This document shows positions 39,783 through 64,000 of a DNA stretch of 64,000 nt, in pieces; positions within the stretch are counted from its first letter, which is position 1; every line of letters begins with the position of its first letter. Where the stretch lies: positions 8,413 through 72,412 of the forward strand of contig JAFGPK010000020.1 in NCBI GenBank assembly GCA_016936235.1. The letters run 5' to 3'. The position numbers and the translations under genes are program-made. The DNA comes from Candidatus Fermentibacteraceae bacterium. Lineage in GTDB: Bacteria; Fermentibacterota; Fermentibacteria; Fermentibacterales; JCC-6. The notes below the pieces were generated by a model, which had not been told where the DNA came from, did not search any database, and was given only the letters and a program-made list of their open reading frames with translations.

Positions 39783-40571
39783 CTAGCTCTCGTTGTCACC
39801 TTGCGCCATCCTTCTGAGCAACCTTCCGGCCAGCTGGGCCAGCTCCGGTATGGACAGCGACTGTCCTCCGTCGGAGAGGGCCTTGTCCGGATCCGGGTGT
39901 ACTTCAAGCATTATACCGTCTGCGCCTGCGGCCAGACCGGCAAGGGCCAGGGGCTCCAGAATGTCCCTTCTTCCGGAAGCGTGGCTCGGGTCGACTATGA
40001 CGGGATACCCCCCAAGCATCCTGGCCAGGGGGACCGCGGAAATGTCCAGAGTGTTCCTGGTCCAGGGTTCGAAAGTCCTTATGCCCCTCTCGCAGAGCAC
40101 CACTCTGTCATTGCCCTCCTTGACGATGTACTCGGCCGCCATGAGCCATTCCTCGATAGTGGCCATGAAACCACGTTTCAGGAGCACGGGCTTGTCGACC
40201 CTTCCCAGCGCCGAGAGAAGCGGGAAATTGTGCATGTTCCTGGCGCCCACCTGGATCATGTCGACGCAACCCAGTGAGGGGTCGATCTGGTCCACGGCCA
40301 TGACCTCGCTGACAACGGGTATGCTGAACTCCCGTCTGACCCTGTCGAGCAAATGAAGCCCTTCCACCCCCAGTCCCTGGAACGAATAGGGAGAGGTCCT
40401 GGGTTTGAAGGAGCCGCCCCTCAGTATCGAGACCCCGGACTTGACCGCCGCCGCAGCTATGGTCCTGAGCATCTCGAGGCTCTCCACCGAACAGGGCCCG
40501 GCGATGAGGACACCCTTGCCCCCTCCTATGGTTACGTTGCCGACCTGCACCGAGCGGACTTCCATGGTCAC
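39783..40571 (-). CDS. 3-deoxy-7-phosphoheptulonate (DAHP) synthase, type I-beta, catalytic core only
   Basis: 262 aa. LRGGSFKPRTSPYSFQGLG, IQVGARNM and NTLDISAVP. Start is GTG 40571 (GTGA overlap with the upstream stop) or ATG 40565 (2-nt spacer). Confidence 0.9.
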   Translation of the reverse strand: MTMEVRSVQVGNVTIGGGKGVLIAGPCSVESLEMLRTIAAAAVKSGVSILRGGSFKPRTSPYSFQGLGVEGLHLLDRVRREFSIPVVSEVMAVDQIDPSLGCVDMIQVGARNMHNFPLLSALGRVDKPVLLKRGFMATIEEWLMAAEYIVKEGNDRVVLCERGIRTFEPWTRNTLDISAVPLARMLGGYPVIVDPSHASGRRDILEPLALAGLAAGADGIMLEVHPDPDKALSDGGQSLSIPELAQLAGRLLRRMAQGDNES

Positions 40572-42229
40572 CTCTTCCCCAGTTCGCTTATTATGAACCG
40601 GATGATGTCCACGACAGAGCTGTCCGGGATCGGACCCGCGTTGTGCCCCATGGCGTTGTCCACCTGTTCATCCACCCATGTGGGATCGAAGCCACCGCCG
40701 CCGATCATTCCCATGAGCTCGGCCCTCTGGTTCAGGAGCCTGACCAGTTCCACGTCCGATCTCAGCAGTTCGCTCCGGAAATCGGGGGCTATCTCCCTGG
40801 TGCCTACAGCTTTTCTGTCAATCTTGCCGTTGGCCGTTCTTGGAAGACCATGAACAAAATTGACGAGTTTCGGTATCTTGTGTTCATCTATGTGCTGCCT
40901 GAGGAAATTCCTCATCTCGGCCACGTTGAGTTCCTTCCCCGGACGAAGGACGATGTAGGCTGAGGGTATCTCTCCCCTGGTCGGGTGGTCCCTCCCTACA
41001 ACGCAGGCATCCACCACGGAAGGGTGCTTGAGTATCGCCAGTTCCACTTCCAGAGGGTAGACCTTGAGCCCCGCGGCCTTGATGAGGCCTCCTCTGCGCC
41101 CCAGGAATATCAGGCGGCCGTCTTCCCGCCGGAATATGTCGCCTGTTCGGTACCAGCCGTTCAGGAAAGCCTCCTCCGTCTGGGGACGATCCCCCAGGTA
41201 CCTGTTGATCACGCCCTTCCCCGATATCCAGAGTTCTCCGCCCCCGTCCCCGCTGATCAGCTTTCCGGACAGGTCCCGCAACTCAACCGTGTAGCCTTCC
41301 ACCACCCGGCTGAAACCCGGGATCCCGCTCTCGCCGACGAGACCGACTCCGGCGGTCTCGGTGCTGCCCCATACGGGGACCATCTCCACGCCGGTGCTGT
41401 CGACGAAACTATCCATCAGATCCTCGGAAACATGCATTCCGCCGGCTTCCGCCAGACGGACCCCGGAGAGATCGGAATCGCTCCTGCTCCAGAGGTGCGA
41501 AAGGGTCATGAGCTGCGTAGGGAGCGCCATTATTGTTGTGACTCCCTTGTCCGCCACTACCCGGAGGACGTCCCTGGGATACCTGTGCCCGGTGAGCACG
41601 GTCCTTCCGCCGAGGTACAGGCCTCTCATGAAGAGTTCATGGGGATGGCCGTATACGCCGAAGAGCGAAGTATGGACGTCTCCCGACGTCAGGTTCAGGG
41701 TACGGATGACCCCGGCGGTGTTCGCAAGAAGCTGGCCATGGGTGGTGGGGGCTATCTTCGCCTGGCCAGTGGAGGCTGAGGTCACGTTGAGGTAGAACTC
41801 CTCGTCGCTTCCTATCTCCGGAAGGGAGGGGGGGGCTTTCTCTCCCGTCAGCACATCTTCGCCGATGAAAAGGGTATCTTCGTCCTGAGAGGCCTCGTAA
41901 TCCTCAAGTGATGACAGCACCAGACGGTCGGACCATCTGCCGAACACCCTCTGCCTCTCCTGGACGGGCCAGTCGGGATTCAGGGAGACGAACCTGGCTC
42001 CCACCATGGAGACGGCGGTGAACATGCAGGGCAGCAGCACCGATTTTCCCGAGACCACTCCTATCACATGACCGCGTCCGCCTCCGGCCTCATGGATCCT
42101 GGATGAGATGTGACGCGATATCCGGAACCAGTCTGCATACGTTATCTCGACGCGGTCATCGCACAGCGCTGTGGCGTCCGGTGTCTGTTCAGCCCATTTC
42201 TCCAGCAGCCCGTGTACCGTTACCGGCAT
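40568..42229 (-). CDS. AMP-forming adenylating ligase fused to a C-terminal AroQ (chorismate mutase type II)-like domain
   Basis: 553 aa. TSASTGQAK, WYRTGD and LPRTANGKIDRKA end the adenylation fold. The last ~70 aa, ELLRSDVELVRLLNQRAELMGMIG...FDP...GPIPDSSVVDIIRFIISE, align by eye with the CM domain of B. subtilis AroA(G). Confidence 0.78.
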   Translation of the reverse strand: MPVTVHGLLEKWAEQTPDATALCDDRVEITYADWFRISRHISSRIHEAGGGRGHVIGVVSGKSVLLPCMFTAVSMVGARFVSLNPDWPVQERQRVFGRWSDRLVLSSLEDYEASQDEDTLFIGEDVLTGEKAPPSLPEIGSDEEFYLNVTSASTGQAKIAPTTHGQLLANTAGVIRTLNLTSGDVHTSLFGVYGHPHELFMRGLYLGGRTVLTGHRYPRDVLRVVADKGVTTIMALPTQLMTLSHLWSRSDSDLSGVRLAEAGGMHVSEDLMDSFVDSTGVEMVPVWGSTETAGVGLVGESGIPGFSRVVEGYTVELRDLSGKLISGDGGGELWISGKGVINRYLGDRPQTEEAFLNGWYRTGDIFRREDGRLIFLGRRGGLIKAAGLKVYPLEVELAILKHPSVVDACVVGRDHPTRGEIPSAYIVLRPGKELNVAEMRNFLRQHIDEHKIPKLVNFVHGLPRTANGKIDRKAVGTREIAPDFRSELLRSDVELVRLLNQRAELMGMIGGGGFDPTWVDEQVDNAMGHNAGPIPDSSVVDIIRFIISELGKR

Positions 42230-51557: not shown

Positions 51558-52496
51558 CTACATCAGGGGCGTCAGCCAGGTGAATCCCGCCGCTTCCATC
51601 GACCCGGTGGCCGACACGCCGGAGAAATCTATGTCCTCAAGCACGCTGGCGGCGGCTTCAGGAGGCTCCATCCCGTTCTCCAGTATCTGGTTGAGGTAGA
51701 ATATCTCGATGATACCGCTCGCTCCCCAGTCCACGCTGTTTGTATAACCCGAGACCAGGAAGCCCTGGGGCCAGCTGTCCCTGGAACCGACGATAGCCCG
51801 GGGGAGACGGCCGGCCATAATCTCGCAGCAGCTGAAGTGGATCATGGCCAGATTCCTGCATGGTTCTATCGCCTGCAGGAAGTCCCGGGAGGAGACCGTT
51901 CCCGACGCAAGTTCCACGCCTGAGCTCGAGCCGTGGGAGGCGATGACCAGGTAGAGGTCGCCGGGAAGCCCGGAGGATTCCAGGCAGAAGGTCCTCAGGT
52001 CGTCGGCGTCGTGCACGAACCGGTGCCTGACGGTGACCCCGGGAACCCTGGCGAACCAGGCGGCGAGCATCTCACCGAAGGAGTACTCGTCCTCGGAGAG
52101 GGATGTCTGCCATTCGGATTCCAGAACCACCAGCCAGTTGGACGGCGCCGTCCCCGACCCGGCCCTGTAGCCTTCCCAGTCATACCAGGTACCGCCGCCG
52201 TCGGGTCTCCACATTCCCCGGATCGCGTTACCGTCTTCGGAGAGCAGGAACCAGCCCTCTCCGGACGCCGAGGGCTCCTGGTACGTGAAGGCCAGTTTCC
52301 CTTCGCCGTCCACCGAACCCTGAACGGTGGAATAGCCTCCGAGGGTGTAGTAGCCGCTGACCTCGAGTCCCTCCTGGAACAGCACCAGGGTCCCGTAGGT
52401 GGTCTCCCATGTCCCGCCGAAATCCGCGGGTTCGTCCCCGAAGGCCTGACTGACAGTGATCAGGGAACAGAGAACCGCCATGGAGATGATCTTCAT
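51558..52496 (-). CDS. secreted protein with C-terminal caspase/legumain-like (clan CD) His-Cys signature
   Basis: Signal peptide MKIISMAVLCSLITVSQAFG (ATG 52496, ATGA overlap with the alaS stop). LYLVIASHGSSSG and MIHFSCCEIMAG resemble the His-Gly and Ala-Cys catalytic blocks of clan CD peptidases. Confidence 0.55.
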   Translation of the reverse strand: MKIISMAVLCSLITVSQAFGDEPADFGGTWETTYGTLVLFQEGLEVSGYYTLGGYSTVQGSVDGEGKLAFTYQEPSASGEGWFLLSEDGNAIRGMWRPDGGGTWYDWEGYRAGSGTAPSNWLVVLESEWQTSLSEDEYSFGEMLAAWFARVPGVTVRHRFVHDADDLRTFCLESSGLPGDLYLVIASHGSSSGVELASGTVSSRDFLQAIEPCRNLAMIHFSCCEIMAGRLPRAIVGSRDSWPQGFLVSGYTNSVDWGASGIIEIFYLNQILENGMEPPEAAASVLEDIDFSGVSATGSMEAAGFTWLTPLM

Positions 52497-54280
52497 TCCA
52501 GCACCGCCCTTATCCTTCGCACTCCCCGGGAGGAGCTCTTCTCGCTGATTATCCTGAAGCCGCCCAGCTCCCCCGTCCTGGAGACATGGGGACCTCCGCA
52601 TATCTCCATGGAGAAATCGCCTATCCTGTACACTTTCACCATGTCGCCGTACCTGTTCCGGAAGAGCCCGATGGCCCCCTCTTCCAGGGCATCCTCGAGG
52701 ACCTTCTCCTGGCAGACTATCGGGAGGTCGGCCTTTATGATACCGTTCACCTTCTCCTCCACCAGACGGATCTCGCTGTCGGTCATGGCGTCCGGGTGGC
52801 TGAAGTCGAACCTCAGCCTCTTCTCGGTGATGTTGCTTCCCTTCTGCTCCACGTGGTCTCCCAGCACCTCCCGCAGAGCCTGATGGAGAAGATGTGTGGC
52901 GGTATGGAGCTTCGTGACCATCTCGCTGTTGTCCGCCAGACCACCTTTGAATTTCCCCTCGCTGCCCTGCCGGGACAGTTCCCTGTGCCTGTCGAAGGCT
53001 TTAGTGTAACCATCCATGTCAACGGAGAGGCCGTGCTCCGAAGCCAGCTCCGCAGTGAACTCCACAGGGAAGCCGTAGGTGTCGTAGAGCTTGAACGCCA
53101 CCCGCCCCGGTATCGTCCTCGAAGGATTCCTGGAGAGGTTGGGAAGCAGCTTCTCGAACTCACGGAGCCCAGACTGGAGTGTTTCCTCGAAACGTTCCTC
53201 CTCCTGCTCCAGCTCCTTCATGACGAAGTTCCTGTTCCGCGCCAGCTCGGGGTAGTCGCCGGACTCGGTCTCGATGACCAGCTCCGCCAGCCTGTGGGTG
53301 AAGGGTTCGTCGATCCCCAGTTTCCTTCCGTGGCGCACGGCCAGGCGGATCAGACGCCTGAGGACGTACCCCCTGTCCAGGTTGGATGGCGGGATGCCCT
53401 GATCGTCACCCAGTACGTGCGTGGCGGTCCTGATATGGTCCGAGATTATCCTCAGGGACCTTCGGGCATCACCCGAGGGTTCGTCACCGGTTCCCGACAG
53501 CTTCTTCAGGAAACCGAAGAGAGGTCTGAACTGCGGTATGTCGAATATCGAGTCGCAGCCGTTGATCATGGCCACGGTGCGCGCCACGCCCATCCCCGTG
53601 TCCACGTTCCTGTTGCCCATGGGAACGTACTCTCCAAGGGCCGTCTTCCTGTATTCCATGAAAACATCGTTCCACACCTCGAAGTACTTGCCGCAACCGC
53701 ACCCCGGTCTGCATTCCGGTCCGCATGCGGGTCTTCCTGTATCGATGAACATCTCCGTATCCGGACCGCAGGGGCCCGTGGCCCCGGTAGGACCCCACCA
53801 GTTGTCCTCCCTGCCGAGGAAATAGATCCTGTCCCCGGGAACCCCCACCTCTTCCCAGAGGGCGGCCGCCTCCTCGTCGGGCGGGGCCTGCCCGTCTCCG
53901 GCGAATACGGTGACATGCAGCCTTTCAGGGCTGAAGCCCAGCCACTCCCGACCTGTGAGGAACTCGAAGCTCCACTGTATGGACTCACGCTTGAAGTAAT
54001 CCCCCAGCGACCAGTTCCCCAGCATCTCGAAGAAGGTGAGGTGCGAGGAGTCGCCAACCTCCTCGATATCGCCGGTGCGTATGCACTTCTGCACGTCGAC
54101 CAGTCTGTTGCCCGCAGGGTGTTTCTCACCCAGGAGATAGGGGACCAGGGGCTGCATCCCGGCGGGAGTGAAGAGTATGGTGGAGTCTTCCTGAGGTATC
54201 AGCGAGGCTCCCTGGATCAGGGTGTGCCCCCTCGCGGTGAAGAAATCGAAATAGAGTCTCTTGAGCTCTTCAGCTGTCAT
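52493..54280 (-). CDS. alaS: alanine--tRNA ligase, short form lacking the C-Ala domain
   Basis: 595 aa. FTPAGMQP, KCIRTGDIEEVGDSSHLTFFEMLGNWS, editing-domain HTATHLLHQAL and CGGPHV. The protein ends ~30 aa after CGGPHV. Confidence 0.9.
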   Translation of the reverse strand: MTAEELKRLYFDFFTARGHTLIQGASLIPQEDSTILFTPAGMQPLVPYLLGEKHPAGNRLVDVQKCIRTGDIEEVGDSSHLTFFEMLGNWSLGDYFKRESIQWSFEFLTGREWLGFSPERLHVTVFAGDGQAPPDEEAAALWEEVGVPGDRIYFLGREDNWWGPTGATGPCGPDTEMFIDTGRPACGPECRPGCGCGKYFEVWNDVFMEYRKTALGEYVPMGNRNVDTGMGVARTVAMINGCDSIFDIPQFRPLFGFLKKLSGTGDEPSGDARRSLRIISDHIRTATHVLGDDQGIPPSNLDRGYVLRRLIRLAVRHGRKLGIDEPFTHRLAELVIETESGDYPELARNRNFVMKELEQEEERFEETLQSGLREFEKLLPNLSRNPSRTIPGRVAFKLYDTYGFPVEFTAELASEHGLSVDMDGYTKAFDRHRELSRQGSEGKFKGGLADNSEMVTKLHTATHLLHQALREVLGDHVEQKGSNITEKRLRFDFSHPDAMTDSEIRLVEEKVNGIIKADLPIVCQEKVLEDALEEGAIGLFRNRYGDMVKVYRIGDFSMEICGGPHVSRTGELGGFRIISEKSSSRGVRRIRAVLE

Positions 54281-54355: not shown

Positions 54356-54523
54356 GAGATCCTTCTCGTATATCCTGTATGCTCGGGTACTGCTCAGCTT
54401 TGAGGTCCCTCTCAAGTATCTTCCTCATTGACCGTCAATGAGCCTCAGAGATCCTTCTCGTATATCCTGTATGTTCGGTACTGCTCAGCTTTGAGGTCCC
54501 TCTCAAGTATCTTCCTCATTGAC
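54356..54523. repeat. direct duplication (77/76 nt, 92-nt period) of the 3' end of the GNAT-like gene, with a 9-bp palindrome at the junction
   Basis: 54356-54432 and 54448-54523 differ by one substitution and one 1-nt indel. Copy 2 encodes the last 25 codons of gene 54445-55569. The junction has ctcattgac-c-gtcaatgag (54424-54442). Confidence 0.9.
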
Positions 54524-55569
54524 GCATTGTCCTCCAGTATCCATGAAAGCTCTCCCCAGACGACTCCCTGCTCCACATTCGAGCTGATTATCCGATCGAT
54601 GAGCAGTGCCTCGAACCCCCTGCCCCGGTATGCCTTCCTGACCCCCAGGAGCAGCACCCTGCTCCGGTCCATCCTGACCTTGAAGAACGGGACCTTCATT
54701 GCCAGCAGTAACTTGAACAGACTCCCGCCCGCCTTCTTCATCGCCTGATTCGCATCGGGGATGGAAACCGCGAAGGCAACGGGCTGCCCGTCCACTTCGA
54801 GTATGGGGGCCATGCTGGGCACCATTATCATCTTGAGCTCGTCGGCCATCCGGTCGAGTTCTTCCTTGGTCATGGGGACGAAGCCCCAGTTGTCCTGCCA
54901 GCACTCATTGTAGATGTCCATTATGAGAGGCACTTCCAGGTGGATGTTTCTGACGGAGATGTCCCTCAGGACAGCGTTGCTCCTCTTCTTCACCAGTTCC
55001 GCCACCCTGGCCATACGCGATTCCGCGGCAAGCGAGGAAAACAGCTTGTAAGCGAACAGGTCCCTCACCTTGACGTAGCCGCAGGCATCCATCAGGTCGG
55101 GGTACCAGGGCGGATTGTAGGTCATCATTATCAGCGGGTTTCCGTCGAAGCCCTTGACCAGCATCCCGCATTCCTCGTTGGTGGAGAAGTTCATGGGTCC
55201 CCTGATCCTTGACATCCCGGCACTCCTGAGGGTCTCCTCGCACCTCTCCATGAGTGCCGAAGCCAGTTCAGGGTCGTTCTCCAGCTCTAAAAAACCGAAG
55301 AAACCCGTTCTTTCGCCATGGTATTCATTATGGGCACGGTTCACGATGGAAGCGGCCCTGCCCACGACCCTGCCGCTGTCGCCGCGGGCCAGGAAGTACT
55401 CCACCTCGGCGTGCCTGTGGAAGGGGTGCTTCTCCCTGTCCAGCAGCTCCCTCTGGAAGTACCTGACCGGAGGGACCCAGTTCGGATCGCCGGAGTACAG
55501 CCTGAAGGGAAGGTCTATGAACTGCCGCAGCTGACCCCTGTTCTCTACTCTCTCGACTGAAAAAGGCAT
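54445..55569 (-). CDS. GNAT-fold-like N-acyltransferase candidate (possible bacterial ceramide synthase-type enzyme)
   Basis: 374 aa. Two-lobed acyltransferase-like pattern with C-terminal LLGVRKAYRGRGFEALLI (GNAT motif A-like R-x-x-G-x-G/A). 13 nt downstream of the Spt-like gene. Confidence 0.7.
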   Translation of the reverse strand: MPFSVERVENRGQLRQFIDLPFRLYSGDPNWVPPVRYFQRELLDREKHPFHRHAEVEYFLARGDSGRVVGRAASIVNRAHNEYHGERTGFFGFLELENDPELASALMERCEETLRSAGMSRIRGPMNFSTNEECGMLVKGFDGNPLIMMTYNPPWYPDLMDACGYVKVRDLFAYKLFSSLAAESRMARVAELVKKRSNAVLRDISVRNIHLEVPLIMDIYNECWQDNWGFVPMTKEELDRMADELKMIMVPSMAPILEVDGQPVAFAVSIPDANQAMKKAGGSLFKLLLAMKVPFFKVRMDRSRVLLLGVRKAYRGRGFEALLIDRIISSNVEQGVVWGELSWILEDNASMRKILERDLKAEQYRTYRIYEKDL

Positions 55570-55582
55570 CGGACCTCCAGGA

Positions 55583-56776
55583 TCATATTATGCCCAGTGC
55601 TTTGCCGCACTTCTCGAAGGTCTCCAGGGCCCTGTCGATCATGGCGTCGGTATGGGTCGCCATGTAACTCGTCCTGAGCATCTCTCCTCCGCTGGCCACG
55701 GCGGGACTCACGACCGGATTCGTGAACACCCCCTCCTGATAGAGGCTCTTCCAGAAGAGAAGTGTCTGGACCTCGTCACCTACTATGATGGGGACGATGG
55801 GAGCCTCTGAATTCCCGACATTGTAACCCATGGAGGCCAATCCCTGCCTTGCCCTCTCAGCTGCACTGTGAGATCTTGATACCAGCTCCGGCTCCTGCTC
55901 GAGAACGTCCAGCGCCGCGATGACAGTCGCAACGGCTGCGGGTGGCAGGCTGGCCGAGAATATCATGGTCCTGGCGGTGTGCTTGATGTACTCCATAACC
56001 CTGGCCGGCCCTGCCGCGAATCCCCCCACACAGGCGAAGGACTTGCTGAAGGTTCCCACCAGTATATCCACATCCTCGTGGCACCCGAAATGCTCCGCGG
56101 TGCCCCTTCCCCTGGGACCCATGGCCCCCACCCCGTGTGCGTCGTCAACTATGAGGCGGACACCGAACTCCTTGCTTATCTCCACAAGACCGGGGATGTC
56201 TGCCAGGTCGCCCTCCATGCTGAATACGCCGTCGGTGACGATCACCCCCGGGTGCTTGCGGTTGTTCTCCAGCATGTACCGCAGGTGCTCGTGGTCGTTG
56301 TGCCTGTACTTCAGGACCCTGCCATAGCTCATCCTGGACCCGTCAATGATGGATGCATGGTCAAGCCTGTCGAGGTAGATAATGTCGTTCCGCCCCGCGA
56401 TGGTTGAAATAACCCCCATATTGGACTGAAAACCGGTGCTGAACGTTATGGCCATCTCCTTGTCCAGGAATTCGGCCAGTCTCCTCTCAAGCTCGATGTG
56501 AAGGTCCAGTGTTCCATTGAGAAAACGGCTCCCGGTGCAACCTGTACCGTACTTGTCTATGGCGTCCTTGGCGCTTTCCATTACCCTGGGGTGATCGGTG
56601 AGACCAAGGTAGTTGTTCGAGCCCAGCATTATGATGCTGTGGCCCTCTATCTTCATCTCGGCCCCCACATGACCGCTCAGCGGAATGAAATAGGGGTAAA
56701 GGCCGGACTTCTTGACCTGTTCCAGCCTCTCGTAATCGAAGCATTTCTGAAAGACATCGTTCTCTGTAAGGTTCAT
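55583..56776 (-). CDS. spt: alpha-oxoamine synthase, serine palmitoyltransferase-like
   Basis: PLP lysine in GTFSKSFA, DDAHGVG, and N-terminal FQKCFDY...GLYPYF typical of bacterial Spt. ATG 56776 (AAGGTG upstream) is preferred; the ORF opens at 56806. Confidence 0.82.
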   Translation of the reverse strand: MNLTENDVFQKCFDYERLEQVKKSGLYPYFIPLSGHVGAEMKIEGHSIIMLGSNNYLGLTDHPRVMESAKDAIDKYGTGCTGSRFLNGTLDLHIELERRLAEFLDKEMAITFSTGFQSNMGVISTIAGRNDIIYLDRLDHASIIDGSRMSYGRVLKYRHNDHEHLRYMLENNRKHPGVIVTDGVFSMEGDLADIPGLVEISKEFGVRLIVDDAHGVGAMGPRGRGTAEHFGCHEDVDILVGTFSKSFACVGGFAAGPARVMEYIKHTARTMIFSASLPPAAVATVIAALDVLEQEPELVSRSHSAAERARQGLASMGYNVGNSEAPIVPIIVGDEVQTLLFWKSLYQEGVFTNPVVSPAVASGGEMLRTSYMATHTDAMIDRALETFEKCGKALGII

Positions 56777-56866
56777 ACTGCACCTTGTCATTAAGGGAAT
56801 CAACATGTAGCATTGCGCAGGAAGTTAATCAGGATACCCTCTGAAGTCAACGGATTCCGGTGAAAT

Positions 56867-57799
56867 ATGAACAGGTCGGTGCTGACCGGAGCCTCCGGTT
56901 TCCTGGGCAGTCACGTAGCTGAGATACTCCTGGCGGAAGGCCGGCCGGTAATGGCGCTGCTCCGCCCCTCCTCCTCCACGGAGAACGTCCCGCCTGGCTG
57001 CCTGACGGCCAGGGTGGATTTCATGGACCCCTCTTCAATGGAGGAGCCCCTGGCCGGAGCGGATGTGATAATCCACTGCGCCGGAGCCACAAGCGCGGGG
57101 AGCCAGGAGGAGTTCGACAGGGCCAATGCGCTGGTGACGGCGAACCTCCTGTCGGCCGGAAAGGCCGCCGCCCCGGGCGCCCTCTTCATCTTCATCTCCA
57201 GTCAGGCGGCTTCGGGGCCTTCGGGTTGCGGTCCCGTTACTGCATACGGCAGGAGCAAGCTGCTGGGTGAGTTCGCCGTCAGGGATTCCCGGAACTGGAT
57301 AATCCTGCGGCCTCCGGCTATTTTCGGCCCCCGCGACCCGGCCTCTGCCCCGGTCATGAGAATGGCCCTGAGGGGTCTCTTCGTCTCACCCTGGCTGAAC
57401 GGGGGAGGGTTCGGCCTTGTGTACGCCGAGGACCTGGCCAGGCTGATAGCTTCCCTTCCCGGATTCCCCGGGGCCGTTGGGCAGACCCTTTCGCCCTCCT
57501 ACGGAAGGCTGTTCTCATGGAAGGATTTCCACCATGTGCTGGAGGATGCTTCGGGAAGGCGGATACTCCATGTGAGAGTGCCTCCGTTCCTGGTCCGCAC
57601 TGCGGGTTTCATGTCGGAGGCCCTGGCGTCCTTCTCCGGCAGGACGCCCTTCTTCTGCATGGACAAGTGCAGGGAGCTGCTTGCGCGGGAGTGGGACCTG
57701 GAGGACGGCCTCACCCGCAGGCTGACGGGATGGGAACCCTCCATGACGGTGGAGGAGGCTATGAGAAGCACCTTCCGGTACTACGCGGAAAAGGGCTGA
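56867..57799 (+). CDS. NAD(P)-dependent epimerase/dehydratase-family (extended SDR) reductase
   Basis: 310 aa. LTGASGFLGSH Rossmann motif and YGRSK (YxxxK). Divergent from the Spt-like gene. Confidence 0.82.
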   Translation: MNRSVLTGASGFLGSHVAEILLAEGRPVMALLRPSSSTENVPPGCLTARVDFMDPSSMEEPLAGADVIIHCAGATSAGSQEEFDRANALVTANLLSAGKAAAPGALFIFISSQAASGPSGCGPVTAYGRSKLLGEFAVRDSRNWIILRPPAIFGPRDPASAPVMRMALRGLFVSPWLNGGGFGLVYAEDLARLIASLPGFPGAVGQTLSPSYGRLFSWKDFHHVLEDASGRRILHVRVPPFLVRTAGFMSEALASFSGRTPFFCMDKCRELLAREWDLEDGLTRRLTGWEPSMTVEEAMRSTFRYYAEKG

Positions 57800-57821: not shown

Positions 57822-58523
57822 CTAAAGGTGTAACAGCTTTCGAATCTCCTCGCGTCTCACCCTGAACCACCTGCGTAGATAGAACATCAGCAGGACGAGC
57901 AGCATCATGCATCCGAATGTCACCGCAGACCAGCTTAGGAACCAGCGGTGGGCGAAGTAGCTGTTGATAAGCAGCTCGAGTCCCACTGCCAGAACACCGG
58001 AAGCCACAATTGCGGCGATTACGCTGCTGAAGGTAGATAGAACGAGTTTCCTTGCGGTGACAAGAGTCAGCACAGGAATAGTCACTGTCAGCAGTATCAC
58101 AGGAAGAGCAAGAGGAACGAACCAGGCCGGTCCCGGTGTGAACAGGTCCAGCAGGAAGAGGAACAGGCAGACGGCTGCTATCTGTGCCGGGAGGTACACC
58201 CATGCGCGGTGTGAGAAGAGTACCGCCATATGAACGGAAAGCCACAGTAACGCGATGAATATCAACGGATAGCGAGCCCAGGTGATGGACATGTCTGAGG
58301 CGAGGTCAATTGCCAGGACCACGACGGCGCCCGTGGCTGCGATGAGAGACAGGATTTCCAGTGCCCATCGCCGGATGCTCCGCCCGGCCTCCTTCGGTTT
58401 GCGCGGGGAAGGCGCCGGTTCCTCCTTATCACCTTCGGTCCATGGCGGGATTGCATTGCGGCACAGGGGACAGAAGCGTGAATCCTCCTCCACCTCGACC
58501 TTGCAGAACTCGCAGATTTTCAT
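57822..58523 (-). CDS. zinc-ribbon polytopic membrane protein
   Basis: 233 aa. CEFC-x10-CPLC ribbon at the N-terminus, then ~6 TM helices. ATGA overlap with the upstream acyltransferase stop. Confidence 0.7.
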   Translation of the reverse strand: MKICEFCKVEVEEDSRFCPLCRNAIPPWTEGDKEEPAPSPRKPKEAGRSIRRWALEILSLIAATGAVVVLAIDLASDMSITWARYPLIFIALLWLSVHMAVLFSHRAWVYLPAQIAAVCLFLFLLDLFTPGPAWFVPLALPVILLTVTIPVLTLVTARKLVLSTFSSVIAAIVASGVLAVGLELLINSYFAHRWFLSWSAVTFGCMMLLVLLMFYLRRWFRVRREEIRKLLHL

Positions 58524-59830
58524 AGATCACTGTTCCTTTCGGAAACTCGCACTTGTACTCCCTCACCCGCAATATGCGAGAAGAACAGCCTCTCCGTCTC
58601 CCGGCTCTCGATCACACTTCCGAAGTTGATACTGAGATCGTTCTGAAAGCTGAGTATGGCGCAGCTGCACTTCATCCACGGGTTCGGGCCCAGCATGAGT
58701 CCGAACTCACTGACATGAGGGAGAATCTCCTCCGGCACATCGATTCGCCCGATATTGGTGAGCACACCGGAATAGAGCCTTTCTCCCAGCCATTTTCGAA
58801 TGAACAGGAGCAATCGGTCCTTGAGGTATAGAGGCATGATCCGAATGAATGGATTTCGCTGGGCGCGAACATTGCGCGAGACCTGGCGGCTAAGTTCCCT
58901 TCCATCTACTTGAAGGGTCATGCTGTGATGCACCCTCTTGACTATGGCGTCGAAGCTGTAGGCGCCCAGTCTCAGGTCTATCTCCGGAGACGCGTAAAGG
59001 GAGAAGTTGCGCATGGTCAGCGAGGGATAGAACCGGCGCATATCGACAGGCACCTCTATGCGCAGAATCCCTCTTCCTGATCCGTCGTCCGCAGCGGACG
59101 CCCTGACCTGCGCCAGCGAGTACATGTACACAGCAACCAGATACTCGGTAAGACTGACCCCGTGATCTCTTGAGAGGACCAGCATTTCGTCGACGGGCAT
59201 TCTTCCGGTTATGACGCGGTAAAAGGACCGGGGCGGGTCGGGAAGGTGATAGGCGGGAGACAGTCTCTGCGGTCCTGGTAGATCCCTGTCGAAGTATTTG
59301 CTGTAGGCATCTTCGAATTCGGCCTGAGAGAATGGCTCTTCCGGATCGAAAAAAGGTTTCCAGCCTGTTATGTGGACGCCCCTCTGACGAAGATACTGAG
59401 TCACCAGGGTTCCGATGAAGCGTACCGCTCCCGTGCCGTCAGTAAGCACATGCGAGAAATCAACGGCTATTGTATTACCGCCTGCCTGCACACGCAGCAG
59501 ATGCGCGCTTCCCGTCGGTCCTGGCATCACCGAGACCGGAACCGTACTCAGGGGACGCAGCTCGGGGATGTCATCGTCGCGTTGAAGGTAATACCAGAAC
59601 AGACCTCGCTGGAGATGTACCTGAAAGTAGGGGAATCTGGGAAAAACCTTCCGAAGAGCCTGCTGCAGAGCGGAAACTCGAACGGGCTCCTTAAGCGTCA
59701 CCGAGAGCCGGTACACATCGGGAGACCACTCCGAGAATGCCGCCGGGTAGATCTGGGCCGCATTGTCCAGCGTTAGCCAATCCCGCTGATGATCAACGCC
59801 CTGTTCTTCCCTGATATCATCCATGACCAT
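58520..59830 (-). CDS. HxxxDG-motif acyltransferase (condensation / alcohol-acyltransferase / WS-DGAT superfamily)
   Basis: 436 aa. IAVDFSHVLTDGTGAVRF contains the HxxxDG catalytic motif at about one third of the length, as in this superfamily. Confidence 0.72.
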   Translation of the reverse strand: MVMDDIREEQGVDHQRDWLTLDNAAQIYPAAFSEWSPDVYRLSVTLKEPVRVSALQQALRKVFPRFPYFQVHLQRGLFWYYLQRDDDIPELRPLSTVPVSVMPGPTGSAHLLRVQAGGNTIAVDFSHVLTDGTGAVRFIGTLVTQYLRQRGVHITGWKPFFDPEEPFSQAEFEDAYSKYFDRDLPGPQRLSPAYHLPDPPRSFYRVITGRMPVDEMLVLSRDHGVSLTEYLVAVYMYSLAQVRASAADDGSGRGILRIEVPVDMRRFYPSLTMRNFSLYASPEIDLRLGAYSFDAIVKRVHHSMTLQVDGRELSRQVSRNVRAQRNPFIRIMPLYLKDRLLLFIRKWLGERLYSGVLTNIGRIDVPEEILPHVSEFGLMLGPNPWMKCSCAILSFQNDLSINFGSVIESRETERLFFSHIAGEGVQVRVSERNSDL

Positions 59831-60464
59831 GGATTATCTCCAGCAAGGGGTCCCGTCCGAGAACGAAAAAGTACAGACAGGTGCCGAACAGGCCGTGGAA
59901 TATACCCAGCGCCCAGAGATTACGGGTGCGAAAGTAAACCGAAGTGGTTACCAGGGCAAGACAGAACGAGGCTCCGACCAGCAGTGGAGATGAAGCATGA
60001 GCCAGGGCGAATACGAAAGCCGTGAGGAGAACGATCACGGGCTCCGGGAACCGGCCGTACTCCCTGATATTGCCCGCTATCAGAGCGACAACGAGGTACT
60101 GCTGGACCAGACCCCAGATGGGATAGAGCAGAAGGACCAGCAACATATGCCAATGAAGCACCATGCTGCCGGTGAACTTCCCGTAGGCTGCAGATCCCAG
60201 GACCGACAGAAGCATGAAGGGTGACAGAAGCACTATACTCCGGCCGAACCTTCGTTTCGTGAATCCCCATTCAGCGAGAACCGATCTATCCGCGGCCGCT
60301 CGAACCGCAACGAAACCTGTCCAGAAGAGACAGGCTGCCACTACATATACCAGCTGCAGATTCAGCCATTCGGCCAGCAGAATGTTGCCCAGTCCGGTCA
60401 GGAGGACGAAGGCGATCTCCCACCTTGAATCAGTCCTACCGGTCTTTATCAACCCCGCCAGCAT
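59817..60464 (-). CDS. CPBP/Abi-like intramembrane protein, possibly degenerate
   Basis: 215 aa, ~6 TM. FALAHA (FxxxH) and IFHGLFG (Hxxx motif) are present. The expected EExxxR appears as WGLVQQYLV. 14-nt overlap with the downstream acyltransferase. Confidence 0.65.
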   Translation of the reverse strand: MLAGLIKTGRTDSRWEIAFVLLTGLGNILLAEWLNLQLVYVVAACLFWTGFVAVRAAADRSVLAEWGFTKRRFGRSIVLLSPFMLLSVLGSAAYGKFTGSMVLHWHMLLVLLLYPIWGLVQQYLVVALIAGNIREYGRFPEPVIVLLTAFVFALAHASSPLLVGASFCLALVTTSVYFRTRNLWALGIFHGLFGTCLYFFVLGRDPLLEIIHGHG

Positions 60465-60718: not shown

Positions 60719-61210
60719 CTACCGCTTGTAGCCTATTCTCTTGAGGAGCTCAACCCTGTTCTCGATGTCCTCCTCTATCTCCACAGCCAGTGGAGGCTCG
60801 CCGTCTATGACGCCCATCACGCCCCCTCCCTGATCCGTCCTGCCCACGATGACCTGTACGGGATTGGCCGAGGCGCAGTATATCCTGCAGACCTCCGGGA
60901 CGGCCTTCACCTGGTTCAGCACCTGTATGGGGAATACGCCGCTGAGCACTATCATGAAGGTATGGCCGCAGCCCAGCCGCAGCAGGTTCCTCTCGGCCAC
61001 CGCCCTCAGCTCGGCAACGGTGCCGTCGCTCCTCACCAGCCTGGGACCGGACGCCTCGGAGAAGGCCAGACCGAACTCCGCTCCGGGGACGGTGCCGGCT
61101 ACGGCCTCGTAAAGGTCTTCCACCGTCTTGATGAAATGGGACTGCCCGAAGATGATGTTGCAACCCTCGGGGAAATCAAGGTCGACGATATCGATGACCG
61201 GTTCATCCAT
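60719..61210 (-). CDS. adenosine-specific kinase-like protein (DUF355 family)
   Basis: 163 aa. GQSHFIKTVEDL and IYCASANPVQV pattern remembered from the PF04008 family. Confidence 0.7.
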   Translation of the reverse strand: MDEPVIDIVDLDFPEGCNIIFGQSHFIKTVEDLYEAVAGTVPGAEFGLAFSEASGPRLVRSDGTVAELRAVAERNLLRLGCGHTFMIVLSGVFPIQVLNQVKAVPEVCRIYCASANPVQVIVGRTDQGGGVMGVIDGEPPLAVEIEEDIENRVELLKRIGYKR

Positions 61211-61250
61211 ACCAGCGAAACCTCCCTTCGATCTGTTACTGGAGCAGGCT

Positions 61251-62699
61251 TCAGTACCTCTTTCTCTTCCCTGCTGTCGGGATGTTCATCTCGGTCCTGT
61301 AGTTGGCCACCGTCCTCCTCTTCACTTCTATCCCGGCCGAATCCAGCGCCTCCACCAGCCGGGCGTCCGAGAGGGGCTTCCTCTTGTCCTCGTTATCGAT
61401 GATCTTCCTGAGTTCGTCCTTCACCGCCCTGCTGGATATCTCGCCGGACTCCCCGGGCATGGCGCGGCTGAAAAAGAAGCGCATCTCATGAATACCCTGA
61501 GGGGACTGCACGTACTTACCGTTGATGGCCCTGCTTATGGTGGACTGGTTGTATCCCAGGGCGTCCGCCACCATCTGGAGCGTCAGCGGCCTCAGCCCCT
61601 CCAGCCCCATCTCGAAGAAGTCCCGCTGGTATTCCGCCAGGAAGCCGCCTATCCTGGTCACGGTCTCCTGACGCTGCCTGATTGCCTTTATGAACCAGGA
61701 TGCCTTCTGGAACTTCTTCTTCACGTACTCCTTCTCGGTATCGCTGCTGCCGGGGGATTCCAATATCATCCTGTTCCTGTCGGATATCATGAGATAGGGA
61801 AACCTGCTGTCGTTCAGCACCGCTTCGAAGTGGCCTTCGATCTCCACTATTATGATGTCGGGTATCACGGCGGAGTTGGCGGAGGCTGAGAACTCGTTGC
61901 CGGGCCACGGGTTCAGGGCCGATATCCTGTCCACCGCCTCCTGGACCTTGTGGGGGGAGACACCCTCAGCCGCAGCTATGGCCTTGATCTTTCTCTCCGC
62001 AAGTTCGCTGAAATGGTTTGACACGATCCTGTACTCGAGGCTGTCGGGAGTGTAGCCCAGCTTCTCCAGCTGCATCTCCAGAGCGCCGGAGGCGCTGAAG
62101 GCTCCCACACCGGTGGGCTCAAGGGAGCGGACAATGTCGAGGGCCCTGCCGAGAAGATCGGCATCTCCCTCCCAGCCGGCTTCCAGCTCGAAGATGGGAA
62201 GGGACAGGAGACCGTGGCCGTCAAGGGAATAGACCAGATATACCACGGCCTCTTCCAGATCCCTCGGCAGGAAGAGCGACCAGACCTGGTCGAGAAGGTG
62301 CTCGTACAGGGTAGGCTCGTTGGGAGGTTCCGGCATCCACGGCTCATCATCGTCTCTGTAGGGGCCGGTGTACCCGTCTCCCGAATGCTCGTCCAGCTTC
62401 CTCAGGATGTCCAGGGTGTCTTCCTCCCTGCTGTCGCTCCTGGAGGGTTCCTCCCCCCACTCCTCGCCTCCCCTTTCCCCGTATTCCTCATCAGAGGAGC
62501 CTTCCCTGGCCTCCACAGGGTTCTCATCCGGGCTTCGCTGCTCCAGGAGCGGATTCTCCTGGAGCTCCTGCCTTATGAGGTTCTCAAGGTCCATGGATGG
62601 CAGCTGCAGTATCTCAAGGGCCTGTTTGATCTTCTGGGTCAGGGCCAGCTTCTGGGTCTGGACCATCCTGAGGTTCTGGTTTAGCTTGAACTCCGGCAT
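61251..62699 (-). CDS. rpoN: RNA polymerase sigma-54 factor
   Basis: Region I LNQNLRMVQTQKLALTQ, acidic region II, and C-terminal RpoN box KRRTVANYRTEM. ATG 62699 lies 1 nt after the lptB stop. The ORF is open to 62756. Confidence 0.93.
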   Translation of the reverse strand: MPEFKLNQNLRMVQTQKLALTQKIKQALEILQLPSMDLENLIRQELQENPLLEQRSPDENPVEAREGSSDEEYGERGGEEWGEEPSRSDSREEDTLDILRKLDEHSGDGYTGPYRDDDEPWMPEPPNEPTLYEHLLDQVWSLFLPRDLEEAVVYLVYSLDGHGLLSLPIFELEAGWEGDADLLGRALDIVRSLEPTGVGAFSASGALEMQLEKLGYTPDSLEYRIVSNHFSELAERKIKAIAAAEGVSPHKVQEAVDRISALNPWPGNEFSASANSAVIPDIIIVEIEGHFEAVLNDSRFPYLMISDRNRMILESPGSSDTEKEYVKKKFQKASWFIKAIRQRQETVTRIGGFLAEYQRDFFEMGLEGLRPLTLQMVADALGYNQSTISRAINGKYVQSPQGIHEMRFFFSRAMPGESGEISSRAVKDELRKIIDNEDKRKPLSDARLVEALDSAGIEVKRRTVANYRTEMNIPTAGKRKRY

Positions 62700-62700
62700 T

Positions 62701-63453
62701 CTACAGCCTGAACCTCTCTCCGAGATAGATCTTGCGCGCCTCCGGGTCCTCGGCAAGCTCCTGCGCCGACCCGGATATCAGTATTCTTCCATCGTACATT
62801 ATGTAGGCCCTGTCGGTTATCGCAAGTGTCTCCCTGACATTGTGGTCGGTTATGAGTATTCCCAGACCCCTTGCCCGCAGGTCCCTGATGATACCCTGGA
62901 TGTCGTCCACAGCTATGGGATCTATTCCCGCGAAGGGCTCGTCCAGCAGAAGGAATGCCGGGTCGGTCACCAGCGCCCTGGCTATCTCCACCCTCCTTCT
63001 CTCCCCGCCGGACAGGGTGAAAGCCTTCTGATCAGCCACTTTCTCTATGCCCAGATCAGACAGAAGCCTTGCCTGCCTCTCCTTTCTCTCCCTCCTGCGA
63101 AGTCCGGTGGTCTCCAGGATGCTCATGAGGTTGTCCGCCACGGTCATCTTCCTGAACACGCTGGACTCCTGCGGCAGGTACCCTATGCCAAGCCTGCAAC
63201 GCCGGTACATGGGAAGGTGGGTCAGCCTGATATCATCCATGAAGACATCGCCGGAGTCGGGTGTGATGAACCCGACTATCTGGTTGAAGGTCGTGGTCTT
63301 GCCTGCCCCGTTGGGGCCGAGCAGACCCACGGTCTCCCCCCTGCTGACCGTTACGGACACTCCGTTGACCACCGCCCTTTTCCGGTATTTCTTGACCAGG
63401 TCCTCTGTCCTCAGGACCCGCGGGCCCGGTGAGGCGGCCGTTCTCTCGCTCAA
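62701..63453 (-). CDS. lptB: LPS export ABC transporter ATP-binding protein
   Basis: 250 aa. Walker A GPNGAGKTT and signature LSGGERRRVEIARAL. Classical lptB-rpoN adjacency. Confidence 0.92.
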   Translation of the reverse strand: MSERTAASPGPRVLRTEDLVKKYRKRAVVNGVSVTVSRGETVGLLGPNGAGKTTTFNQIVGFITPDSGDVFMDDIRLTHLPMYRRCRLGIGYLPQESSVFRKMTVADNLMSILETTGLRRRERKERQARLLSDLGIEKVADQKAFTLSGGERRRVEIARALVTDPAFLLLDEPFAGIDPIAVDDIQGIIRDLRARGLGILITDHNVRETLAITDRAYIMYDGRILISGSAQELAEDPEARKIYLGERFRL

Positions 63454-64000
63454 GGGTTGCCTCCAAGATAGCTGTAGGTTCCTGTAACGCTTCCTGATAC
63501 GATGACTTCCACGGCCTCGCCGTTCTCGAAACTGATGCTCATCATGTTCCCCCTGACGGTGTTCATCTCATCCCTCTGCGCGGCATCACCTCCCGACTTC
63601 ATCCTCAGAAGCGCCGCGCCGGCGAGCATCACCGAATCCGGATCGCCGTCCTGGAACTCGAAGAAGGCGCTTTCGGAGGAAAACCAGGTCTCCGCCGGAG
63701 GATCCTGATCCCTGTCGAGAAAATATCCGGCGGCGTCCCCCTCGATCCTCACCCGGCTTGGATCGCCAGAGTCATCCAGCAGGATCTCCATCCAGTCTCC
63801 CGAGAGCTCACTGCCCTCTGATTCAAGTACAGGTGAGCCGAACAGTTCGAACCTCTCCTCATCGCCGAAATACCTCAGGTATTCCGACGTTGACCTGAAA
63901 TCCCTGGCCGGCATCAGTACGGTGGCGTTTCCCTGTGCTTCGGCGGAGTTGTCCTCGGGGAAGAACTCAAGCCTGTCAGCCGTCACCGTGAGGCTGTCAC
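63450..64000 (-). CDS. lptA: LptA/OstA-like periplasmic LPS transport protein (5' end outside window)
   Basis: The frame stays open to the window edge (the listed start at 63986 is an internal GTG). OstA-like pattern ADRLEFF...AQGNATV. 4-nt overlap with lptB. Confidence 0.6.
   Translation of the reverse strand, partial: DSLTVTADRLEFFPEDNSAEAQGNATVLMPARDFRSTSEYLRYFGDEERFELFGSPVLESEGSELSGDWMEILLDDSGDPSRVRIEGDAAGYFLDRDQDPPAETWFSSESAFFEFQDGDPDSVMLAGAALLRMKSGGDAAQRDEMNTVRGNMMSISFENGEAVEVIVSGSVTGTYSYLGGNP

Follow-up and report, generated by a model that had tools for sequence, protein, structure and literature searches.

Within the 64,000-nucleotide stretch of Candidatus Fermentibacteraceae DNA analysed here (hereafter, the window), three adjacent genes encode an alpha-oxoamine synthase (AOS), a GNAT-family protein and a short-chain dehydrogenase/reductase (SDR), the enzyme classes from which bacterial ceramides are built. 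The synthase gene, called from the open reading frame (ORF) list and a Pfam Aminotran_1_2 match, lies on the minus strand at 55583-56806 and encodes a 407-residue protein that appears to be of the serine palmitoyltransferase (Spt) type. It is followed, after a gap of 13 nt in the ORF list, by a minus-strand gene (54445-55569) for a 374-residue protein which, from homology and a structural model, is a putative tandem-GNAT N-acyltransferase of the bCerS/YghO family and a predicted ceramide synthase; given this short gap, it is probably translationally coupled to the synthase. The third gene is transcribed divergently (56867-57799, plus strand), and its 310-residue product is a CerR-like extended SDR of the NAD-dependent epimerase/dehydratase family (Pfam Epimerase). 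An earlier note on this DNA had described just such a trio, and its account proved exact in the ORF list, with every motif that it quoted in place: FQKCFDY...GLYPYF and GTFSKSFA in the synthase, and GASGFLGSH and YGRSK in the SDR.

The synthase orthologues of other Fermentibacterota are 394-395 residues long, and for this reason we place the true start of the window synthase, with some confidence, at Met11 (56776), for a probable product of 397 residues. As read from the sequence, the divergent intergenic region between the synthase and SDR genes spans 56807-56866, a distance of 60 nt that grows to 90 nt if translation of the synthase starts at Met11. This region is presumed, by inference, to be a shared promoter; scans of the Spt-SDR locus for promoter and terminator consensus sequences returned nothing above background.

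Several lines of comparison place the synthase among the Spts. Its Pfam match to Aminotran_1_2 scores 198 bits, and its best NCBIfam model is that for the Spt of the CFB group (Bacteroidota; NF047600) at 508 bits, followed by the generic BioF/Kbl subfamily (400), BetaP Spt (390), Kbl (380), BioF (372) and AlphaP Spt (309). Its best match in the PDB, over the full length, is the SPT of Sphingobacterium multivorum (SmSPT; 3A2B, 8GUH) with 421 bits; next come a Thermus BioF/Kbl (302), the Sphingomonas SPTs (273-280) and E. coli Kbl (253), and the solved cysteate acyltransferases score 252 (cysteate-C-fatty acyltransferase, CFAT) and 228 bits (Alistipes SulA). Global identity is highest with SmSPT (48.7%), ahead of Sphingomonas Spt (36.6%), Kbl (35.5%) and BioF (30.2%). 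When the protein is aligned with SmSPT, GSNNYLGL (62), DHASIIDG (149), DDAHG (221), GTFSK (Lys255) and LRTS (377) fall into register, so that the active-site set of Asn, His, Asp/His, the pyridoxal phosphate (PLP) lysine Lys255 and Arg is conserved, and the residues with which SmSPT binds the serine external aldimine are all kept. The sole clear active-site difference between SulA and Spt is reported to be a lysine in SulA, Lys281, where Spt has alanine, and this lysine is contributed by the partner protomer (PMC9304779). The equivalent position of the window synthase, 30 residues after the PLP lysine, is Ala285, in the motif IFSASLP; the Sphingomonas Spt reads IFTASLP.

We also built a neighbour-joining distance tree of 67 synthases: Kbl and BioF of E. 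coli, two Spts that have been characterised or curated, and the synthases found next to GNAT homologues. In it, those from Fermentibacterota form one clade (100/100) among the cluster synthases, SmSPT included, and Kbl and BioF are split from all other synthases with a bootstrap of 80/100. As judged from these comparisons of sequence, the synthase is Spt-type and nearer to characterised Spts than to Kbl, BioF, ALAS, CqsA or CFAT, which is the placement for which the earlier note had proposed a phylogeny as a check.

The GNAT protein is harder to place by general models. Pfam returns a weak Acetyltransf_1 match (25 bits, residues 216-336), there is no NCBIfam model for it or for the reference orthologues, and a PDB search found no close solved relative. 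The family itself is large, with 7648 representatives at 50% identity for E <= 1e-3 and 1363 for E <= 1e-30. Homologues in an informative context were obtained by tblastn of annotated plasmid records, with matches over the full length at 35-41% identity. One of these is an N-acetyltransferase of Sphingomonas parapaucimobilis (35% identity, E 7e-74, ~100% coverage), which is encoded in a locus of the order NAD(P)H-binding (CerR-like), ACP (acyl carrier protein), Spt, ATP-binding, lptF, lptG, desaturase and N-acetyltransferase, where the Spt passes the NCBIfam alphaproteobacterial cut-off (833 vs 670). In S. wittichii, Swit_3905 and Swit_3906 are the orthologues of Caulobacter LptF2 and LptG2 (PMC11324152, supplementary table), and Swit_3908 is that of the Caulobacter ceramide synthase bCerS, CC_1154 (45% identity, E 5e-109; PMC11324152). 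The S. parapaucimobilis N-acetyltransferase is likewise separated from lptF/lptG by one gene and therefore occupies the bCerS position. The field takes a BLASTP match with E <= 1e-30 and coverage >= 50% as homology to bCerS, and the window GNAT is within these bounds when compared with this positional orthologue of CC_1154, as distinct from the Caulobacter protein itself.

Further comparisons agree with this assignment. The window GNAT aligns over its full length with E. coli YghO at 35.5% identity, the range for YghO and the GNAT of a Streptomyces cluster being 35-37%, and in an alignment of 56 sequences all seven family-invariant residues (7/7) are present in the window, Sphingomonas, E. coli and Streptomyces cluster proteins. 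An AlphaFold (AF2) model calculated with that alignment as input has a pLDDT of 95.3 and a tandem GNAT fold; prediction from the single sequence had given an unusable model (pLDDT 38), and the alignment was used instead. The best structural matches of the model are MAB_4324, the clavulanate tandem GNAT, a glucosamine N-acetyltransferase and MshD (TM ~0.6, identity 9-15%). The CoA-binding R-x-x-G, at residues 315-318, is part of the C-terminal GNAT domain and does not vary among the closer homologues (alignment A2). The comparison with bCerS called for by the earlier note thus came out as full-length homology by way of the Sphingomonas positional orthologue, with every invariant residue retained, and membership of the bCerS/YghO family and a predicted N-acyltransferase function are supported.

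For the SDR, Pfam reports Epimerase (73 bits) and related extended-SDR models, and the protein has the GxxGxxG (GASGFLG) and YxxxK (YGRSK) motifs of extended SDRs. It matches the SDR of the E. coli cluster over the full length (29% identity, E 8e-34) and that of a Streptomyces AOS-GNAT-SDR operon (31% identity, E 5e-35); the best unrelated SDR in the PDB scores only 46 bits. The gene order in E. coli PN43 is lptF, lptG, AOS, ACP, epimerase/dehydratase, fatty acyl-AMP ligase and yghO, and that in Caulobacter is aasR-cerR-acpR-spt (PMC11324152). The E. coli SDR gene is at the CerR position because it sits between the acyl-AMP ligase and ACP-spt, as cerR does between aasR and acpR-spt. The window SDR is therefore supported as CerR-like through reductases encoded at the CerR position, the comparison holding no Caulobacter sequence. 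CerR of Caulobacter is reported to be periplasmic (PMC11087976); the window SDR begins directly at the Rossmann motif, with no obvious signal peptide, and its E. coli homologue is alike in this respect.

The association of the three genes extends far beyond the window. When GNAT alignment A2 was run against GTDB genomes, one per species, 80 loci were obtained, in which neighbours were called by tblastn when a homologue of the window synthase lay within 3 kb of the GNAT gene and an SDR homologue within 5 kb. An AOS is near the GNAT in 58/80 loci, and both AOS and SDR in 45/80; for the 52 evaluable loci, where the flank on each side of the GNAT gene is 3 kb or more, the counts are 42 and 34. The 80 loci come from more than 15 phyla, among them Fermentibacterota, Acidobacteriota, Gemmatimonadota, Zixibacteria, Ignavibacteria/Chlorobiota, Eisenbacteria, Latescibacterota, Myxococcota (with the cultured Archangium gephyra among them), Bdellovibrionota (Bacteriovorax), Spirochaetes, Planctomycetota, Chloroflexota, Elusimicrobia, Caldisericota and Binatia. 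The layout seen in the window, with a divergent SDR followed by AOS and GNAT on the other side, recurs in 10 loci.

Natural AOS-GNAT fusions, with an Spt-like N-terminal part and a bCerS-family GNAT C-terminal part, are found among the representative proteins (P0132, 780 residues, and P0183). The gene for P0132 (8001-10343 of locus L089) lies between those for an epimerase-family SDR and a PAP2_3 protein, the latter a possible head-group transferase. These fusions are consistent with acylation directly after condensation, as opposed to being proof of it for the window locus, and they lend modest independent support to an order in bacteria in which acylation precedes reduction. Because of the linkage across phyla and the fusions, the GNAT must be functionally tied to the synthase; the association of the trio cannot be chance.

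Closer to home, the nearest named GNAT homologues are from Candidatus Aegiribacteria, Candidatus Fermentibacteria and Candidatus Sabulitectum. The best locus by GTDB species is that of Candidatus Aegiribacteria sp. MLS_C (L007), where the synthase is 90%, the GNAT 73% and the SDR 71% identical and the order is the same as in the window: adenosine kinase-like, SDR, synthase, GNAT, a 595-residue alanyl-tRNA synthetase (AlaRS), a conserved secreted protein and an M42 peptidase. Two more distant Fermentibacterota, whose GNATs are 50-52% identical, keep the synthase-GNAT-SDR trio.

Taken together, the three genes probably constitute a bacterial pathway for the ceramide (dihydroceramide) backbone in Candidatus Aegiribacteria-like Fermentibacterota, a reading already put forward in the earlier note and upheld here by the homologies of the synthase, the GNAT and the SDR. 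The Spt-type synthase would condense serine with a long-chain acyl thioester to 3-ketodihydrosphingosine, the bCerS-homologous GNAT would N-acylate the amine of this intermediate from an acyl-CoA or acyl-ACP donor, and the CerR-homologous SDR would reduce the 3-keto group, the order of acylation before reduction being that of the Caulobacter model (PMC11087976). The basis for this reading consists of the protein family assignments, the Spt-type active-site residues and the genomic coupling across phyla; which amino acid the synthase uses, what donates the acyl chains, whether acylation or reduction comes first, what head group is finally added and where in the cell the lipid resides, presumably the outer membrane of this diderm, are inferred.

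A number of observations weigh against the ceramide assignment. The score of 508 bits to NF047600 is below the curated equivalog cut-off of 640, and the synthase also falls short of the BetaP (390 vs 500) and AlphaP (309 vs 670) Spt cut-offs, these equivalog models being clade-specific, with none for Fermentibacterota. The synthase tree, in which the earlier note had wished to see CFAT/CapB references as well, contains no CFAT sequence, and the amino-acid specificity of an AOS cannot be proved by sequence. Membership of the bCerS and CerR families is drawn from positional orthologues and a published orthology table in place of a direct Caulobacter comparison, and about one fifth of the evaluable GNAT homologues have no AOS nearby, so the GNAT family may not be single-function. 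Searches of the window by tblastn gave no match near the trio to an ACP, whose presence nearby the earlier note had suggested looking for, nor to an acyl-ACP synthetase/acyl-AMP ligase, LptF2/G2 or a desaturase; the only hit was an unrelated weak AMP-binding match ~29 kb off. The annotated part of the window (~38.7-64 kb) also showed no head-group enzyme.

With these points in mind, we considered what else the locus might make. One extension of the ceramide reading, which we regard as unlikely, is that the compact ACP-less trio makes a non-canonical N-acylated sphingoid lipid that differs in its amino-acid head or acyl donor and is a major component of the outer membrane. If this were true, Fermentibacterota would be an unreported source, among anaerobic fermenters, of unusual environmental sphingolipids, and the Spt-bCerS fusions would point to acylation as the step right after condensation in bacteria other than Proteobacteria too. 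A related proposal, that these ceramide-type enzymes use alanine, glycine or lysine, with a 1-deoxy or otherwise unusual backbone as the main product, is quite improbable. Bacterial Spts have been reported to accept alanine, environmental lipidomics has led to the hypothesis of ceramides derived from lysine, and both the sub-threshold equivalog score and the limits of reading substrate specificity from sequence leave room for such a product; the complete conservation of the SmSPT serine external-aldimine residues, at ~49% identity to that characterised enzyme, argues for serine.

It is very improbable that the trio serves no lipid pathway at all, whether by producing a secondary metabolite derived from an alpha-aminoketone or by being mere neighbours through synteny. 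A Streptomyces plasmid does carry AOS, GNAT and SDR genes together with one for a condensation-domain protein, in the manner of a natural-product operon, and the size of the GNAT family and its members that have no AOS neighbour would fit such a view. Set against this are the conserved AOS and SDR neighbours of GNAT homologues across more than 15 phyla, which include the sphingolipid producers Sphingomonas, the myxobacterium Archangium and Bacteriovorax, the AOS-GNAT fusion proteins, and the retention of the trio within Fermentibacterota across a range of 50%-73% GNAT identity. Least credible is the sulfonolipid (capnine/sulfobacin) locus that the earlier note had offered as its alternative, in which the synthase would use cysteate and the GNAT and SDR would N-acylate and reduce 3-ketocapnine: that route needs the same three enzyme classes, cysteate acyltransferases have the Spt fold and a nearly identical active site (PMC9304779), and Fermentibacterota belong to the FCB group together with sulfonolipid-making Bacteroidota, but it finds no support in a synthase with alanine at the SulA-Lys281 position and scores of 228-252 bits to SulA and CFAT vs 421 to SmSPT, and the annotated ~38.7-64 kb of the window showed no gene resembling cysteate synthase.

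The ceramide pathway is not new in itself. The three enzymes and their clustering were reportedly described in 2021-2022, and a 2024 study of the Black Sea predicted Spt-like genes in metagenome-assembled genomes of 38 phyla, for a total of 40, often with bCerS and CerR nearby (PMC11334938). Fermentibacterota are not mentioned in the text or supplements searched of that study (PMC11334938), and no paper in the searchable literature joins Fermentibacter*/Aegiribacteria with sphingolipid or serine palmitoyltransferase. The suggestion that the lineage is probably undescribed in this regard therefore holds within the searchable literature, but for a pathway already predicted in ~40 phyla; what we report is a known pathway correctly identified in a phylum for which it seems not to have been described before. 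Should the genes be active, ceramide-type lipids would be made by Candidatus Aegiribacteria and other Fermentibacterota, uncultured anaerobes that inhabit digesters, sulfidic lakes and sediments. The assignment, if true, would lengthen the list of bacterial sphingolipid producers, provide source organisms for sphingolipids in anoxic environments and bear on how the outer membrane is built in these diderms. Our understanding of the pathway is unchanged, since earlier publications already cover the enzymes, the way their genes cluster and how very widely they are spread among phyla.

The surroundings of the trio differ in how well they are conserved. Directly downstream of the GNAT gene is that for a short AlaRS (52493-54280, minus strand) of 595 residues with catalytic and SAD domains; a typical bacterial AlaRS is well longer. 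The adjacency of AlaRS and GNAT is kept in all Fermentibacterota loci examined (also L001, L002, L007 and L008) and in no other phylum, and is probably phylum-level synteny as opposed to a functional link. We also considered whether the GNAT could be an aminoacyl-tRNA-dependent, Fem-like enzyme tied to the AlaRS, and rejected this: the AlaRS adjacency is confined to Fermentibacterota, whereas that of AOS and SDR spans phyla. The ORF that follows (51558-52601, minus strand) overlaps the 3' end of the AlaRS gene by ~109 nt as called. Its likelier start is an internal Met36, after which there is a signal-peptide-like stretch MKIISMAVLCSLITVSQAFG; a protein begun there fits the length of the orthologues, 296-315 residues. 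The product, conserved and secreted, matches no Pfam domain.

On the other side, three genes on the minus strand (57822-60464) lie between the SDR gene and that for the adenosine kinase-like protein. They encode a DUF6320 zinc-ribbon membrane protein (233 residues), a 436-residue protein with an acyltransferase-like HVLTDG (HxxxD) motif and a faint AATase match, and a CPBP/Rce1-like protease (215 residues). None of the three is found at the SDR-flanking position in the Fermentibacterota loci L001, L002 and L007, and their products have no homologue among the 88 other fetched loci; they look like a lineage-specific insertion that is unrelated to the conserved trio. A relationship of the HxxxD protein to the Streptomyces condensation-domain protein was rejected, the similarity not being significant (E 0.014).

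Further out, rpoN, lptB and an lptA-like gene (60719-63986, minus strand) are a few kb from the trio, and in L001 (1-5820) the trio is also near KdsD-like, LpxL-like and LptC/LptD_N-like genes. Because of these neighbours in the two loci, the putative ceramide genes of Fermentibacterota can be described as adjoining a lipopolysaccharide transport cluster. At 40568-42229 (minus strand) is the gene for a 553-residue AMP-binding enzyme whose C-terminus weakly matches chorismate mutase type II, an unusual domain combination; this gene is immediately upstream of one of the KDO8P/DAHP-synthase family, with which it is probably co-transcribed.

Among known systems, the locus is most readily compared with that of Caulobacter crescentus, whose ceramide pathway is said to have been worked out by Stankeviciute et al. 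in 2022 and Olea-Ozuna et al. in 2021. The Caulobacter enzymes are Spt CC_1162, bCerS CC_1154 and CerR CC_1164 (PMC11087976, PMC11324152). The window has the same three enzyme types, also clustered, and its GNAT and SDR have homologues that are, by position, orthologues of bCerS and CerR. Unlike the Caulobacter region, which comprises 17 genes, it is a compact divergent three-gene unit without a dedicated ACP (AcpR), acyl-ACP synthetase (AasR) or LptF2/LptG2, and its synthase is nearer the Bacteroidota than the proteobacterial type (508 vs 390 and 309 bits). On Roseomonas spp. megaplasmids (plasmid matches H3-H16) the GNAT homologue adjoins a gene for an NTP-transferase-domain protein, which parallels the MobA/CobY-like CC_1153 beside CC_1154 in Caulobacter.

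The cluster of spt, acp, SDR, fatty acyl-AMP ligase and yghO next to glcC in E. coli resembles the window in its homologous GNAT and SDR. It differs in being a proteobacterial five-gene version with an ACP, an acyl-AMP ligase and lptF and lptG each in a second copy, and its Spt is only ~36-38% identical to that of the window. The AOS of this cluster is named 'spt' by PGAP and passes the NCBIfam BetaP Spt cut-off. In strain PN43 (L005, 1337-9116) a complete Caulobacter-type ceramide gene set is present, yghO included, and the spt-ACP-SDR-ligase block is found at >=80% coverage in 4068/5426 complete E. coli genomes. A further variant is the operon on the linear plasmid of Streptomyces sp. NBC_01001 (L004, 6769-11295), which encodes an AOS, a bCerS-family GNAT, an epimerase-family SDR and a condensation-domain protein of 415 residues that might further acylate the product.

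Among individual enzymes, SmSPT is the closest solved and characterised relative of the window synthase, and the catalytic residues all align; the spt, bCerS-like and reductase genes of Bacteroidota reportedly lie apart from one another, whereas those of the window are adjacent. SulA and CapB (PDB 7U7H, 28EH) share the AOS fold, the PLP chemistry and a comparable logic of reduction and N-acylation downstream, and are set apart by Lys281 where the window has Ala285 and by a much lower similarity (228-252 bits). The predicted fold of two GNAT domains is reminiscent of MshD, MAB_4324, the clavulanate tandem GNAT and glucosamine N-acetyltransferase (TM ~0.6). Those enzymes transfer acetyl groups to soluble amines, whereas the family to which the window GNAT appears to belong would be expected to move long acyl chains onto the amine of a lipid.

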